Below, piece by piece: positions 34,845 through 37,647 of a stretch of DNA of 64,000 nt (its first letter is position 1; every line of letters begins with the position of its first letter). Below the pieces are notes generated by a model that ran no database searches, was not told the DNA's origin, and was given only the letters and a program-made list of their open reading frames with translations. The position numbers and the translations under genes were made by a program. The stretch comes from an uncultured Gammaproteobacteria bacterium (GTDB lineage Bacteria; Patescibacteriota; Patescibacteriia; JAHIZJ01), in the NCBI GenBank assembly GCA_964371245.1, contig CAYJKP010000001.1:123042-187041 (forward strand). The letters are read 5' to 3'.

Positions 34845-34901
34845 ATCCTAGAAGAATCACAAATATATTGACGGGAAATAAATATTTCGCGTCATTTTAT
34901 T

Positions 34902-35426
34902 GTGACACAAAGGAGAATCTATCAAACCGAATACCCGTATTTCGTGACGTTTCGGACGAGCGGCGATAACCCGTTTTTTGAAGAGACGAAACACGCGGCA
35001 TCGTTATCGCGTATTATATTCCAGGCCGGGAAATTAAAAGGATATGACATTTTGTCGTATCAAATCATGCCGGATCATGTGCATTTGTTGATTCATAAAA
35101 TGCCCCAAGCGCACCTCTCCGTGGGTGCGCGCGGTTGTTTAAATGTGAGCGCGGGCGCGGAGACCCGCGCTCGGGGGTATAACATTTCCCAATTCATGTA
35201 TTCGGTGAAATCATATTTTATCAGACAAATACGAGATAAAGATGAAATTATGGACTCGATTTGGCAAAAACGCTTTTACACCCGGATCGTCAATACCCAT
35301 AAATATCTCGAAACAGCGGTGCAATATATCAAACATAACCCGGTCAAAGTATCATTGCCCAAGAAATATTACCGTGCGCCGTATCAATATGTCGATTGGG
35401 AGGCAATCAAGAAGATAATCGGGTAA
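34902..35426 (+). CDS. tnpA: IS200/IS605-family Y1 (HUH) transposase TnpA / REP-associated tyrosine transposase-like
   Basis: HUH motif 'IMPDHVHLLIH' and catalytic-Tyr region 'AVQYIKHNPVK' in a 174-aa protein. No tnpB partner. Confidence 0.7.
   Translation: MTQRRIYQTEYPYFVTFRTSGDNPFFEETKHAASLSRIIFQAGKLKGYDILSYQIMPDHVHLLIHKMPQAHLSVGARGCLNVSAGAETRARGYNISQFMYSVKSYFIRQIRDKDEIMDSIWQKRFYTRIVNTHKYLETAVQYIKHNPVKVSLPKKYYRAPYQYVDWEAIKKIIG
35109..35172. repeat. two GC-rich perfect palindromes (GCGCACC-n8-GGTGCGC and GAGCGCGGG-n8-CCCGCGCTC) embedded in-frame in tnpA
   Basis: Seen directly. Local GC far above the rest of tnpA. Corresponds to an extra ~21-aa segment (VGARGCLNVSAGAETRARGYNI) relative to the usual IS200 TnpA spacing after HVHLL. 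Confidence 0.55.
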
Positions 35427-35530
35427 TTACCATTATTGACTTCCATGGCCACCAATGGTACACATAAGCCGCTGTCCGATAGCCGGATGGCGTGATCATT
35501 CACATTTTCCCAAGGGAGGGGCTGAACCCC

Positions 35531-37432
35531 ATGAAGACTCAACCGTCTTCCCAAATCGGTCGTCTCGCGGCCGTGGCCTGTTTTCTATTCGTCGTTGCCG
35601 GGCTGGGGCTGGTTTCCGCGCCGGTCTGGGCGCTGACCTGGACGCCGGACCTGCGCCTTTCTATTCCGCCCGATTCGGTCGGTGTTACGCCGGCGATTGC
35701 CAGCGGGCAGGACGGTCATGTGCACGTGGTGTGGGTCGGGGCACCCGGTGATGGCTGGCTCCTCAGCTACAAGCGCTGGGATGGAGCAGCGTGGTCGCTG
35801 ACCCAAGGTTTGGCTTTTAGCCAATATCGTCTGGAACGCCCCTCGATTGCCGTTGATGTGCGCGGATACGTTCACGTCGTCTTCGATGCTCAGATGACGG
35901 AAGAGCAGGATGGCGTCTACTACATGCGTTGGGACGGGATTTCCTGGAGCCAAGTCTATCGGATTAGCGATGACGAGACGGGAGGAATATGCCCGTCCAT
36001 CGCCACAGATACAAATGGGTATGTGCATGTCGCGTGGTATGGATCGGAGATTTACTACAAACGCTGGGACGGGGAGTCGTGGACACTAACCATGCAGCTC
36101 AATGATCAGCACTACTACGTATCAAACAGTCCGTGCCTGACCGCAGATGTGAACGGCAATCTGCACGCCGCGTGGATTACATGGCTGGGTACTAGTCAAC
36201 CCCGGCAGCTTTACTACAAACGCTGGAACGGATGGTCGTGGACGGCGGACTCACTTCTTGTGGACACGCCATGGGCTGAAGCTCCTGCCATCACCGCTGA
36301 TCCAGTTGGAAACGTACATCTGACATGGATTGACGGACGGATTCAATTTGACCCTCAGATCATGTACAAGCGGTGGGATGGGGCTACCTGGAGTGGGGAT
36401 GAGTCGCTGTACTATGGCATGTCGCGCATGTTTCAGCATCCGACAATCACTGCCAGCGATGACGGCAATGTTCACGTCGCCTGGACCCAATACCCTTTCG
36501 GAGGCGGGGATTCGCAACTTCTCTACAAGCTTTGGAATGGGGTGGCATCGGAGACTGAACGCACCCTCGTTTCCGGATCGTTTTCCCTGAACGGCGCGGC
36601 GATGGCTACGGATACCTATGGTAACGTCCACCTCGTATGGCAGGACGGCCGTCACTACAACACCTCCATCTACTACAAGATGCGGAAACACTGCTTGGAT
36701 GGAGATGAGTACGAAGAATGCCGATGGTACACGCCTGACCCGCTGTTCTACGAGCGCTACTCCGCTAATGCCGATACGCTATCCCAGCTGCCGGGCGTGC
36801 CGGTCTTCTACGACTCGACGCGGGTGACGATCAACCGGGGGCCGAATGACCGGTTCTATATCTCGGGCGAGCAGTACGCGCTGGCGGACTGGATCTGCGA
36901 CGACAAGCTCTACATCGACGGCGCTGACGCCGGACTGGGATTCGCGGGGGTGGCTGACTCTGCTCTCACGCTCTGCCAGCCGATCGAAGACGTGTTGATG
37001 TCAGTACCGCCGCGCGACGTGACCGACTTCATCCCGGAAGGCGATCACTGCGTGACCTTCAAGCTGGCCGACACCCAGCGCGCTATCCTCGGCAACACCA
37101 GGATCTACCTGGTTTGGCAGGATGTGTCCGGCGTGGCTGACGGTGACGCACGAGTCAGCCCGGTGCTTTCCGTGTCGCCGAATCCGGCCCAGCGATCGGC
37201 GCTATTCGAGCTGAGCGTTCCGGCCACCGGCCAGTATGCCCTGGACATCTACTCGGTTGACGGCCGGCTGGTGCGTTCGTATCCGGCGGTAAGACTGACG
37301 GCCGGCGAACAGCACCGCTGGACCTGGGACGGCCGTGATCAGCTCGGTGAAACGGCCGGACAGGGGATGTATTTCGGCGCGGCCCGTTCATCTGCCGGCC
37401 AGACCGTCAGGAAGTTGCTCATCGTCAGGTAG
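35531..37432 (+). CDS. secreted beta-propeller repeat protein with a T9SS-type C-terminal sorting domain (Por secretion CTD-like); GC-rich, probably horizontally acquired
   Basis: Signal peptide (MKTQPSSQIGRLAAVACFLFVVAGLGLVSAPVWA). Eight repeats of 'hVHVVW...YYKRWDGxSW'. The final ~85 aa (VSPNPAQRSALFELSVPATGQYALDIYSVDGRLVRSY...WDGRDQLGETAGQGMYFGAARSSAGQTVRKLLIVR) match the T9SS CTD / FlgD-Ig-like consensus. ~62% GC vs ~50% for neighbours. ATG 35531 with GGGAGGGG RBS; ORF-track start 35492 is likely an extension. Confidence 0.7.
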   Translation: MKTQPSSQIGRLAAVACFLFVVAGLGLVSAPVWALTWTPDLRLSIPPDSVGVTPAIASGQDGHVHVVWVGAPGDGWLLSYKRWDGAAWSLTQGLAFSQYRLERPSIAVDVRGYVHVVFDAQMTEEQDGVYYMRWDGISWSQVYRISDDETGGICPSIATDTNGYVHVAWYGSEIYYKRWDGESWTLTMQLNDQHYYVSNSPCLTADVNGNLHAAWITWLGTSQPRQLYYKRWNGWSWTADSLLVDTPWAEAPAITADPVGNVHLTWIDGRIQFDPQIMYKRWDGATWSGDESLYYGMSRMFQHPTITASDDGNVHVAWTQYPFGGGDSQLLYKLWNGVASETERTLVSGSFSLNGAAMATDTYGNVHLVWQDGRHYNTSIYYKMRKHCLDGDEYEECRWYTPDPLFYERYSANADTLSQLPGVPVFYDSTRVTINRGPNDRFYISGEQYALADWICDDKLYIDGADAGLGFAGVADSALTLCQPIEDVLMSVPPRDVTDFIPEGDHCVTFKLADTQRAILGNTRIYLVWQDVSGVADGDARVSPVLSVSPNPAQRSALFELSVPATGQYALDIYSVDGRLVRSYPAVRLTAGEQHRWTWDGRDQLGETAGQGMYFGAARSSAGQTVRKLLIVR

Positions 37433-37508
37433 GCCGGAGGCCGGGCAGACCACCAGAATTCGTACGCATGGAGAAATCCATGCTTTTTCATTTGCCAAAG
37501 CGCCGGTA

Positions 37509-37577
37509 GCCCGAAATCTGTGTTTCGGGCGCGGTTGTATATATTAATACAAACACGCCCCGGCATGCGCCGGGGCG
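37509..37577. repeat. pair of GC-rich perfect hairpins (GCCCGAAA-n6-TTTCGGGC; CGCCCCGGC-atgc-GCCGGGGCG) at the downstream edge of the GC-rich gene
   Basis: Seen directly; the second is followed by TGGATTTG. Could be a terminator and/or REP-like boundary. Confidence 0.5.
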
Positions 37578-37647
37578 TGGATTTGCGTCTCCACGGAGAT
37601 CGTAAATCCGGTGTGACAAATATTAATAAGTTTGGTATAATATACTC

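Follow-up and report, generated by a model that had tools for sequence, protein, structure and literature searches.

The gene described here probably encodes a RAYT of a Patescibacteria-specific clade that has internalised an inverted pair of REPs, in frame, in the loop between strand β3 and helix αC, the two hairpins being candidates for the cognate substrate of the enzyme. It lies in a 64-kb stretch of DNA, the whole of which was analysed and to which we refer as the window. The coordinates of the gene and its features are given in Table 1.

A RAYT-like protein with an extended β3-αC loop

The open reading frame starts with GTG, ends with TAA and encodes 174 amino acids, including the HUH and Tyr motifs already recognised in the initial annotation. 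In an alignment of 42 homologs (alignment A1), H59, H61, Y142 and N146 are invariant, as are R124 and F125, and D58 is kept in at least 90% of the clade. The Tyr motif of the clade has the consensus YIxxNP, with YIKNNP or YIQNNP in some members and YIKHNP in the window protein. The Pfam model Y1_Tnp (PF01797) matches with E=2e-11 and 44.5 bits (cut-off 23) in two stretches separated by the insert, which places the insert where it had first been seen.

The NCBIfam model REP_Tyr_transpos, whose match is also split in two by the insert, scored 78.1 bits against a cut-off of 80, whereas transpos_IS200 scored 33.4 bits and fell below its cut-off of 55. The top solved relative by profile is E. coli TnpA_REP, 4ER8 (E=7e-13; ISDra2, E=2e-4), which also ranks first by fold in Foldseek; aligning profile positions 3-64 with residues 4-64 of 4ER8 takes just one gap, of one residue. 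The residue at Tyr+4 is N, not Q (YIKHNP), and a WQ motif is present (IWQKRF); both align to 4ER8. Judged by the 4ER8 match, the NCBIfam scores and the asparagine at Tyr+4, the predicted protein is RAYT-like and not IS200-like, in agreement with its first identification. An IS200/IS605 insertion sequence was rejected: transpos_IS200 is under its cut-off, there is no Q at Tyr+4, and the gene is single-copy and lacks tnpB. As was noticed from the start, no tnpB-like gene is found among the genes around it.

The neighbouring genes encode pilins, an SBBP/FlgD_ig protein, a hypothetical protein and a prepilin peptidase. Initially, the gene was placed at a junction of native pilin genes with a foreign gene, but a related genome, 83-90% identical in nucleotides, has its genes in the same order, which does not support a recent native/foreign junction here. 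The neighbourhood also recurs at the syntenic locus L001 and in four independent contigs. The gene is not an assembly artefact, because 10 contigs from independent assemblies encode the same protein, and the four that were checked do not differ in the DNA of the gene. The 64-kb window holds one copy of the RAYT gene, and the additional copies that might have been anticipated did not turn up in it. RAYTs are reportedly single-copy and vertically inherited, behaving like housekeeping genes (Bertels 2017). With one copy in the window and its neighbourhood shared with L001 and the four contigs, this gene conforms to that pattern.

In the structural model, strand 59-66 has pLDDT >90, helix αC spans residues 95-114 and the core lies above 90, whereas the insert loop, with pLDDT of about 50, is modelled as disordered. 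The insert region is about 22-24 codons longer than its counterpart in the insert-less sister genes, whose loop has 6-8 amino acids. The model thus has the doublet translated into a disordered surface loop that is rich in Ala, Ser, Gly and Arg and predicted to lie away from the active site.

Table 1. Features of the RAYT-type gene and of its insert (positions in the window)
Feature	Position	Strand	Basis
RAYT-type HUH/Y1 gene	34902..35426	+	ORF list; Pfam, NCBIfam and 4ER8 matches
HUH motif codons PDHVHLL (H59, H61), strand β3	35070..35090	+	invariant in 42 homologs; modelled strand
Insert region, codons 64-93, IHKMPQAHLSVGARGCLNVSAGAETRARGY, coding for the β3-αC loop	35091..35180	+	GC content, MFE, pLDDT, loops of sister genes
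CCCCAA foot of hairpin 1, reverse complement of the TTGGGG tail (common orientation)	35103..35108	+	oriented alignment A2
Hairpin 1, orientation A: GCGCACC-tctccgtg-GGTGCGC (arms GCGCACC 35109-35115, GGTGCGC 35124-35130)	35109..35130	+	perfect inverted repeat; covariance model
Spacer between hairpins, unconstrained	35131..35146	+	scrambled between window and L001; 41-69% identity
Hairpin 2, orientation B: GAGCGCGGG-cgcggaga-CCCGCGCTC (arms GAGCGCGGG 35147-35155, CCCGCGCTC 35164-35172)	35147..35172	+	perfect inverted repeat; covariance model
GGGGG tail of hairpin 2	35173..35177	+	GGG(G) 3' flank kept in alignment A2
αC-β4 segment, residues 94-119, NISQFMYSVKSYFIRQIRDKDEIMDS, "long" type	35181..35258	+	modelled helix 95-114; type co-varies with hairpin type
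WQKRF motif (W121, Q122, R124, F125)	35262..35276	+	R124/F125 invariant; aligns to W94/Q95 of 4ER8
Catalytic Tyr motif YIKHNP (Y142, N146)	35325..35342	+	invariant; aligns to YIYINP of 4ER8

The hairpin pair in the window gene and its relatives

An inverted-repeat check recovered both perfect palindromes of the initial annotation at their places, in frame and between the HUH and Tyr catalytic motifs. The segment is, as had been stated, far more GC-rich than the remaining gene (0.62 vs 0.40), and its folding energy of -45.1 kcal/mol compares with -31.6 for shuffles (z = -3.3). The GGGGG tail can pair with CCCC at 35103-35106 and so close the doublet, and this outer stem is present in the MFE fold. 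The two hairpins represent a single element in opposite orientations, a REPIN-like arrangement; the covariance model scores hairpin 1 at 39.6 bits on the minus strand and hairpin 2 at 45.4 bits on the plus strand. The consensus of the element reads AGCGC, three or four variable paired bases, the loop cRcRgaga, GCGCTC and GGG. The hairpins are short, with GC stems of 7-10 bp, and their feet in the oriented alignment A2 are CCCC(A/G)A and T(C/T)GGGG; a 5' GT[AG]G foot is absent at both ends of that alignment. Hairpin 1 together with the following GTTGTTT is weakly terminator-like in the window. An internal terminator was rejected, the T-rich tail of hairpin 1 being weak and not conserved in the ortholog, and so was membership of a known RNA family, as the sole Rfam match was a meaningless miRNA (E=0.86).

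Within the 64-kb window, no further copy of either exact palindrome was found with up to three mismatches, and the covariance model, with filters off, detected no copy outside the gene (next best 15 bits); the flanks of the gene contain no model matches and no GC hairpins. Since no further copy exists in the window, the multi-copy REP family envisaged earlier is not demonstrated for this genome.

The hairpins are held intact at the DNA level, more tightly than the surrounding codons. The syntenic ortholog in L001 does not lack the insert; it is 13.5% diverged in the gene and carries identical hairpins at the identical position: the stem-loops show 0 differences in 56 positions and the gene elsewhere 71 in 469, and the spacer is scrambled between the two genes despite the identical hairpins. 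In four gene pairs, the hairpins are 93-100% identical, the core 69-87% and the spacer 41-69%, and no part of the gene is less conserved than the non-hairpin remainder of the loop. Where distal stem pairs change, their two sides change in concert, with 65 double changes and 3 G-U cells, a compensation figure that carries an ascertainment caveat, because the hairpins were chosen as hairpins and the paired fraction is therefore partly built in. Conservation tighter than that of the protein code argues against the hairpins being inert passengers; their high identity between orthologs could, on the other hand, reflect gene conversion or re-insertion and not selection.

About 55 Patescibacteria proteins of the sub-clade have an insert of at least 30 amino acids at the same loop, and the insert contains hairpins at every relative locus for which DNA was examined. 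The length and sequence of the insert are highly variable across the clade. At the loci compared, inserts have a GC content of 0.48-0.68 vs 0.29-0.43. Most inserts contain at least two strong hairpins; their MFE z-scores relative to shuffles of the same composition range from -3 to -5.5 and are below -3 in 16 of 19 cases. Over 19 loci, the inserts (2.7 kb) contain 22 perfect GC-rich hairpins with a stem of 8 bp or longer and the flanks (382 kb) contain 39, an approximately 80-fold enrichment. Together with the shuffles, this inside/outside count shows that neither chance nor composition accounts for the hairpins.

The insert is translated, because it is in frame, free of stop codons in all copies but one, a damaged one, and each orientation occupies one fixed frame (orientation A in 15 of 15 cases, orientation B in another frame in 13 of 13). 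All four damaged gene copies break at the insert. Both hairpin orders, A-B and B-A, exist among relatives; these flips and the variation of the hairpins among distant relatives imply turnover. Palindromes nested inside REP loops were seen in some copies.

An exhaustive profile search identified a sister group of insert-less proteins of about 150 amino acids with a loop of 6-8 residues. In L021 and L093-L096, the loop is short and REPs flank the gene instead, and L097, with one hairpin, is an intermediate. The flanking REPs of L094 share the foot of hairpin 1 (as CCCCCAA), and those of L093 and L095 have GTAG feet. From this sequence comparison, the sister layout with an empty loop and flanking hairpins is probably ancestral.

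In related genomes, the hairpins are also found outside the gene. The in-gene hairpin of L002 matches an intergenic copy of the same contig exactly over 31 nt, L091 has an intergenic copy beside rplT, and L085 has an extragenic alternating array of four hairpins in which the 22-nt core of window hairpin 1 recurs exactly. A difference in presence/absence that separates the window from L001 was counted among the dispersed copies as well. The hairpin family is at best very low-copy, unlike classical REPs, because the pattern occurs in only eight stretches of the whole JGI metagenome collection, of which five are true hairpins and three are chance non-hairpin matches (L085 and L092 among these matches are one overlapping locus). 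Of the first proposal, a REP/MITE-like element inserted in a RAYT gene, one part holds: the DNA is REP/REPIN-like, with the same hairpins between genes in relatives. The scenario that it implied, a private or recent insertion, does not fit a loop that is occupied throughout the clade.

Alternative explanations

The segment could be a lineage-specific low-complexity loop, rich in Ala, Arg and Gly and hence in GC-rich codons, with incidental palindromes and no nucleic-acid role. In its favour, the loop occurs in all clade members, is modelled as disordered and varies greatly in length and sequence. However, its folding energy lies far below that of same-composition shuffles, its stem-loops are conserved in a loop that is otherwise less conserved than any other part of the gene, its distal stem pairs co-change, and the same hairpins occur in non-coding DNA. 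The loop is indeed lineage-wide, but homologs that have it without palindromes, which would speak for this explanation, did not appear: the DNA is palindromic in every homolog examined. We therefore regard this explanation as extremely improbable. Nearly as hard to sustain, and very unlikely in our view, is a recent, essentially neutral MITE/REP insertion into this gene copy, analogous to the Rickettsia palindromic elements (RPEs). The same loop is occupied in about 55 homologs, the diverged syntenic ortholog has the same hairpins at the same position, and the 64-kb window contains no donor copy, even though in-frame REP insertions into genes are documented (PMC6006769), the flips between A-B and B-A and the differences among distant relatives signal turnover, and the nested palindromes imply that insertion activity continues.

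A third possibility is that the hairpins work as RNA, in the form of mRNA structures by which translation is slowed, the transcript is made more stable or the protein is bound and so regulates its own gene. The hairpins are part of a transcribed ORF and are predicted to be very stable as RNA, hairpin 1 with GTTGTTT is weakly terminator-like, and extragenic REPs are known to stabilise mRNA (PMC3733652). We consider an RNA role unlikely all the same: the element occurs in either orientation, in genes as well as in intergenic DNA, which an RNA motif would not readily tolerate; compensation is nearly all Watson-Crick (3 G-U cells vs 65 double changes, with the ascertainment caveat given above); the T-rich tail is not kept in the ortholog; and Rfam offers no match. 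Finally, the doublet might be an intervening element that the enzyme excises or inverts, giving a self-acting on/off switch of its own gene. HUH Y1 enzymes do excise DNA between two hairpins by the IS200/IS605 mechanism (PMC6006769), both hairpin orders are found, and the damaged copies, four of four, break at the insert. A switch is nevertheless scarcely credible for a translated insert with a fixed frame per orientation and a single stop-containing copy; the form of the gene does not vary across 10 independent assemblies, and inversion cannot interconvert the two orders, as the reverse complement of the whole doublet keeps A-B.

Under the preferred reading, that of a RAYT with an internalised REP pair, the hairpins would be the cognate single-strand DNA substrate of the enzyme. 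They would first have been inserted by RAYT activity at a permissive site and would since have persisted because selection keeps them or because they are copied time and again from the REP pool of the genome. With the doublet retained inside the gene, the enzyme, its putative REP-contact segment αC-β4 and at least one REPIN would be inherited, and occasionally exchanged, as one unit.

Hairpin type, known systems and implications

The type of hairpin co-varies with the type of the αC-β4 segment. GGAA-loop hairpins accompany the short αC-β4 type in 18 of 18 proteins and the long type in 0 of 35; in the DNA-verified subset, the counts are 4 of 4 and 0 of 15. The NJ tree did not show the GGAA-loop genes as a single clade, and the mosaic analysis of L002 was undertaken for this reason; in the comparison of αC-β4 with hairpin type, L002 is a mosaic gene. 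In E. coli TnpA_REP, base contacts to the REP are made by R78, K82 and R97 (PMC3479197). By analogy, the αC-β4 segment would fall approximately where R78 and K82 lie, the mapping being approximate because that stretch of 4ER8 was unaligned. The link between hairpin type and αC-β4 could reflect only shared descent and physical adjacency. As a tentative and rather doubtful extension, the in-gene doublet and the adjacent αC-β4 segment may form a heritable "lock-and-key" specificity cassette, in which a putative recognition segment sits beside a master copy of its target, co-evolves with it and is exchanged between paralogs by recombination (cf. the L002 mosaic); in gene-dense CPR genomes, the doublet might then be the sole persistent REPIN and possibly an autoregulatory binding site.

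Among known systems, the TnpA of IS200/IS605 elements (subclass 1.1; ISHp608, ISDra2) has the same HUH/Y1 fold and recognises DNA hairpins in single-stranded DNA, a likeness in which recognition by the window protein is putative. IS200/IS605 elements have Q at Tyr+4 (Y[IV]ENQ), subterminal end hairpins, often tnpB and multiple identical copies, whereas the window gene has N at Tyr+4, no tnpB, a single copy and conserved synteny. E. coli TnpA_REP (RAYT subclass 2.2, 4ER8) shares the HUH motif, the single Tyr, N at Tyr+4 and the WQ motif, and the clustering of REPs in alternating orientation at L085 resembles the REP/BIME arrangement of E. coli. The REPs of E. coli, with their GTAG foot and mismatch bulge, are found flanking the gene and in hundreds of copies per genome, whereas the window hairpins are in the gene, perfectly paired and rare. 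RPEs are likewise short palindromic repeats in frame in protein genes, and they are reportedly tolerated there in surface regions of the proteins. They land in many unrelated genes and are unassociated with the gene of their own putative mobilising enzyme; the window hairpins, in contrast, are in the gene of their putative own enzyme.

The closest parallel is already published: in TnpA-Y1 subclass 2.4 (Quentin et al. 2018, PMC6006769), which is RAYT group 4 of Bertels et al. 2017, REPs lie in frame in RAYT genes between strand β3 (HuH) and helix αC. There, too, the length and sequence of the inserted domain vary and the loop that it forms is peripheral, at a distance from the active site, and the proteins, of about 170-210 amino acids, have the WQ motif and a YIxxNP-type Tyr motif. 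The Tyr motif given for subclass 2.4 is YIxNNP, next to YIKHNP in the window protein and YIKNNP or YIQNNP in some members of its clade. Subclass 2.4, however, has the HuH motif NH[IFV]H, where the window protein has DHVH; the window protein lacks the 8-aa insertion at the end of αB relative to 4ER8; REPs of subclass 2.4 are long or "double foot", with 5' GT[AG]G, whereas the window hairpins are short and without such a foot; and the window gene has no flanking REPs. Its host belongs to the Patescibacteria, which the survey does not name, and among the best-ranked literature matches no report joins RAYT/REPIN with Patescibacteria/CPR. The kind of arrangement is thus known since 2018, in the same loop of other bacteria. 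Measured against the accessible text, what is new here is that the clade belongs to the CPR, that its hairpin is of a non-GTAG kind, that nearly every gene contains an inverted pair, that hairpins are conserved above codons, and that hairpin type is linked to αC-β4, including one mosaic.

RAYTs are a widespread group of HUH enzymes, encoded in single copy and passed on vertically; what they do in the cell and how they relate to REPs and REPINs is unsettled, and the presence of REPs inside some of their genes has so far been noted with the reason unexplained. The clade described here is a minimal and clean case, with a 174-aa enzyme, exactly two loop hairpins and no other copy nearby. It also comes with natural controls: sisters with an empty loop and flanking REPs, a one-hairpin intermediate, two pairings of enzyme and hairpin type, and one mosaic. 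Together, these features make the specificity of recognition and the purpose of internalisation directly testable. The finding also extends RAYT/REP systems to the Patescibacteria, whose small, dense genomes have little intergenic room for repeats.

The gene and its loop-coding insert

The 174-aa open reading frame, which begins with GTG, codes for the HUH motif PDHVHLL (H59, H61) and the tyrosine motif YIKHNP (Y142, N146) that the initial annotation had recognized, and none of these four residues varies among 42 aligned homologs. The Pfam model Y1_Tnp matches the protein (E=2e-11) in two separate stretches, which bears out the expected insertion relative to the profile. The NCBIfam model REP_Tyr_transpos, whose match is also split by the insert, scores 78.1 bits (cut-off 80), and the IS200 model scores 33.4 bits against a cut-off of 55. 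A family profile retrieves E. coli TnpA_REP (4ER8) with E=7e-13, far ahead of ISDra2 and IS200 TnpAs, and 4ER8 is the best fold match of the AlphaFold model (mean pLDDT 86.5). The protein also has an N at Tyr+4 and a WQ motif, the class-2 (RAYT) signatures in Quentin et al. 2018 (Table 1, PMC6006769). Judged by sequence and predicted fold, the protein is RAYT-like rather than IS200-like. The gene is single-copy within the 64-kb window, and no tnpB was found among the neighboring genes (two pilins, a 646-aa SBBP/FlgD_ig protein, a hypothetical protein, and a prepilin peptidase), as had been stated.

The GC-rich segment described between the two motifs was confirmed, with a GC content of 0.62 over 90 nt versus 0.40 in the remainder of the gene, and both perfect palindromes are present within it. 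It folds far better than its shuffles (z = -3.3). An assembly artefact as the source of the palindromes was ruled out, because the identical protein is recorded in 10 contigs, each assembled independently, and the four whose gene DNA was compared show no difference.

A protein search returned 77 homologs, most of them 171-211 aa long, and those with a named source are mostly labeled Patescibacteria. In all aligned homologs, a segment that varies in both length and sequence lies between HVHLL and NISxLMxxIKSY. DNA was obtained for about 21 of them; in every intact gene with DNA, the insert has a GC content of 0.48-0.68 versus 0.29-0.43 for the rest. Two or more strong hairpins, with stems of 7-14 bp (mostly 8-10) and with 4-8 nt in the loop, occur in most inserts, and 16 of 19 have a minimum free energy z below -3. 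A count of perfect GC-rich hairpins with stems of 8 bp or more gives 22 in 2.7 kb of insert DNA versus 39 in 382 kb of flanking DNA. By these comparisons, the insert is a clade-wide feature.

In the structural model, the insert (residues about 67-94) forms a loop with a pLDDT of about 50 between the strand 59-66 and the helix 95-114. Hairpins of the main class occur in two inverted orientations, A and B, and whatever their order, each orientation has a fixed frame of its own (15/15 for A, 13/13 for B). In the element consensus, all three frames are open whichever the orientation, and those in use would yield small Ala/Ser/Gly/Arg-rich peptides. The insert is, as far as its reading frames tell, translated.

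Several further observations concern the gene and its relatives. Without the insert, RAYT genes lie about 10 GC points under the host locus in every genome examined (0.40 vs 0.51 in the window; 0.29 vs 0.38 in the homolog L003). Directly 5' of the GTG start is an AT-rich inverted repeat, a possible promoter or operator; no promoter on the plus strand came up in a simple scan. One Peregrinibacteria homolog has a tandem repeat between the two hairpins of its insert. Four damaged family copies are all broken at the insert or loop, which would reflect either a site prone to breakage or hairpins that were poorly sequenced or assembled. Cumulative GC skew climbs almost monotonically over the window (1-64000), and the plus strand is probably leading-strand sequence, i.e., lagging-strand template, in which case the hairpins of the sense strand would be single-stranded DNA during replication. 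Y1 HUH enzymes act on DNA in this single-stranded state.

Features of the window and of related loci
Feature	Locus	Positions	Strand	Detail
AT-rich inverted repeat	window	34862-34901		19-nt arms, 84% complementary, 2 nt apart
RAYT gene	window	34902-35426	+	174 aa
Insert	window	35091-35180		
Hairpin 1	window	35109-35130	+	GCGCACC/GGTGCGC
Hairpin 2	window	35147-35172	+	GAGCGCGGG/CCCGCGCTC
646-aa ORF	window	35492-37432	+	SBBP beta-propeller repeats, C-terminal FlgD_ig-like domain
Intergenic region 3' of 646-aa ORF	window	37433-37647		palindrome TCTCCACGGAGA in centre, contains REP loop motif
Other hairpin, intergenic centre	window	37509-37530		GCCCGAAAtctgtgTTTCGGGC
Other hairpin, intergenic centre	window	37554-37579		11-bp stem CACGCCCCGGC
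Orthologous intergenic region	L001	12532-12878		GGAA-type REP doublet in centre
Tandem repeat in insert	L020	10250-10360		15-nt unit, SVGIG about eight times
Damaged copy	L016	10001-10279		deleted from insert onward
Damaged copy	L018	2797-3270		in-frame stop within insert
Damaged copy	L019	8982-9519		frameshift just past insert
Damaged copy	L021	4909-5341		frameshift in short loop
Nested palindrome	L016	9827-9901		
Nested palindrome	L006	10233-10285		CCTGCCCGCCGCAyGGCTTCGGCAGGCGGG (almost identical in L002)
Nested palindrome	L002	3607-3660		
Similar in look to nested palindromes	L008	11073-11141		
Insert-less or intermediate sister gene	L096	2434-3298		adjoins phage-integrase-family and GIY-YIG genes
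Insert-less or intermediate sister gene	L097	131-967		adjoins phage-integrase-family gene

One element in two orientations, conserved as DNA

Aligned in one orientation, the hairpins follow the consensus (G)AGCGC, 3-4 variable bases, the loop cRcRgaga (variants agcg and ggaa), complementary bases, GCGCTC, and GGG(G). The stem base and the loop are the conserved parts; at the three distal stem pairs, both sides have changed in 12-16 of 33 sequences with only 1 of 99 cells unpaired, a paired fraction that is partly built in, as the sequences were chosen as hairpins. Nearly every gene has one copy per orientation, in the order A-B in five genes, including that of the window, and B-A in eight. The feet of the window doublet point outward (CCCC...GGGG) and are able to close it. 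A REPIN consists of two REPs in inverted orientation, as described in the abstract of PMC3337134, and the in-gene doublet has, in its sequence, this architecture. In three independent cases, a second GC-rich palindrome is nested at the same spot of the REP-hairpin loop (...cRcAGA^GA... or CGA^A), which suggests a second small element targeting REP loops.

The syntenic ortholog L001 shares with the window the order pilin, pilin, RAYT, 646-aa, 139-aa, peptidase at 83-90% nucleotide identity. Within the gene, the stem-loops differ at 0 of 56 nt and the other positions at 71 of 469 (Fisher P = 3e-4), and the spacer between the hairpins is scrambled. In four independent gene pairs with a core identity of 69-87%, hairpin identity is 93-100%, and no part of the gene is less conserved than the non-hairpin insert (41-69%). 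In three more divergent pairs (core identity 59-71%) the hairpins are not the same, a pattern of tight conservation punctuated by replacement. The hairpins appear to be constrained at the DNA level; selection would fit, and so would gene conversion that draws on a REP pool.

Recognition segment and copies outside the gene

The alphaC-beta4 segment directly after the insert exists in a short 21-aa form (IKGNFSR..H.GN) and a long 26-aa form (IKSYF...). ERTLE...VRS peptides, encoded by GGAA-loop hairpins, occur in 18 of 18 short-form and 0 of 35 long-form proteins; among DNA-verified loci, GGAA-loop hairpins are found in 4/4 with the short form and 0/15 with the long form. L002, a paralog about 90 kb off on the contig of L001, is by its identities a mosaic gene: it shares 97% identity with L001 at the N-terminus and 81% with the window at the C-terminus, and its alphaC-beta4 segment is 76% identical to the homolog L012 and 33% to L001 and the window. 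E. coli TnpA_REP makes base-specific hairpin contacts through R78, K82, and R97 (PMC3479197). R78 and K82 fall in 4ER8 residues 65-89, between two aligned blocks, so that their approximate positional counterpart is window residues 65-116. The association between hairpin type and segment form may reflect function, or descent plus adjacency alone.

The initial annotation had called for a genome search for further copies of the palindromes and of the gene. A covariance model built from the hairpin, run on the window and other genomes, detected only the two in-gene copies (45.4 and 39.6 bits) in the 64-kb window and no extragenic one, the next best independent match scoring 15 bits. Elsewhere it found doublets in L001 (intergenic) and L008 (3' of the gene) and several extragenic copies in L016. 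Of the L001 doublet, one hairpin matches the in-gene hairpin of L002 exactly over 31 nt, and the doublet sits in a stretch missing from the orthologous intergenic region of the window; the edges of this region, 3' of the 646-aa ORF, are conserved and the centre is swapped, the window having other hairpins there. A JGI metagenome scan for the hairpin pattern gave eight stretches: one ortholog, three chance non-hairpins, and four true extragenic hairpins, all from one sample, with one copy in a 57-nt gap beside rplT. Also among these four is an array of four alternating hairpins (L085 and L092, overlapping records of a single locus), and the 22-nt core of window hairpin 1 recurs unchanged in its first member. 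From these sequence matches, the hairpin family is dispersed yet low-copy.

History of the doublet and relation to known RAYTs

An exhaustive profile search (68 representative clusters at E<=1e-30) revealed a sister group whose proteins, about 150 aa long, share the signature and have a loop of just 6-8 aa. The sister genes L093-L096 contain no internal hairpin; REP hairpins flank them on both sides in both orientations, with canonical GTAG feet in L093 and L095 and the CCCCAA type of the window in L094. In L021 (Wirthbacteria) the loop is likewise empty and the same kind of REP flanks the gene, and L097 is intermediate, with one in-gene hairpin and the same stem just upstream. In the simplest reading of this series, the ancestor of a Patescibacteria sub-clade would have had a REP doublet shift from the gene flanks to the DNA coding for the loop, where it would then have been kept. 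Phage-integrase-family genes next to two sister genes are hints that some family members travel on mobile islands.

Relatives lacking the insert, which the initial annotation proposed to look for, are found in the sister group, and the ortholog L001 has the insert. Its observation holds, and its interpretation as a REP-like element inside a transposase gene is right in kind and wrong in implied history, since the segment occupies the same loop clade-wide and is not private to this gene. The gene lies within a type IV pilus cluster, adjoining the 646-aa ORF; its place between pilin genes and a putatively foreign gene is shared with L001 and is an inherited arrangement rather than a fresh junction. 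That ORF, which has the same place in L001, has a GC content of about 0.57, versus about 0.50 for the window.

This kind of arrangement was already known. In Quentin et al. 2018 (PMC6006769), subclass 2.4, with REPs inside the tnpA_REP gene, has an insertion of variable length and sequence between beta3 and alphaC, modelled as a peripheral extension. By the signature given there, subclass 2.4 has the HUH motif NH[IFV]H, an 8-aa alphaB insertion, and REPs with a GT[AG]G foot, whereas the window clade has DHVH, lacks the alphaB insertion, and has in-gene hairpins without this foot; compared by signature, the clade does not fit subclass 2.4. The survey does not name Patescibacteria as hosts, and no literature linking RAYTs with Patescibacteria was among the best-ranked matches listed. 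What is added here is the clade-wide inverted pair, the apparent nucleotide-level constraint, the flanking-to-internal REP series, and the linkage between hairpin type and recognition segment; together, these make testable why RAYTs carry their own REPs.
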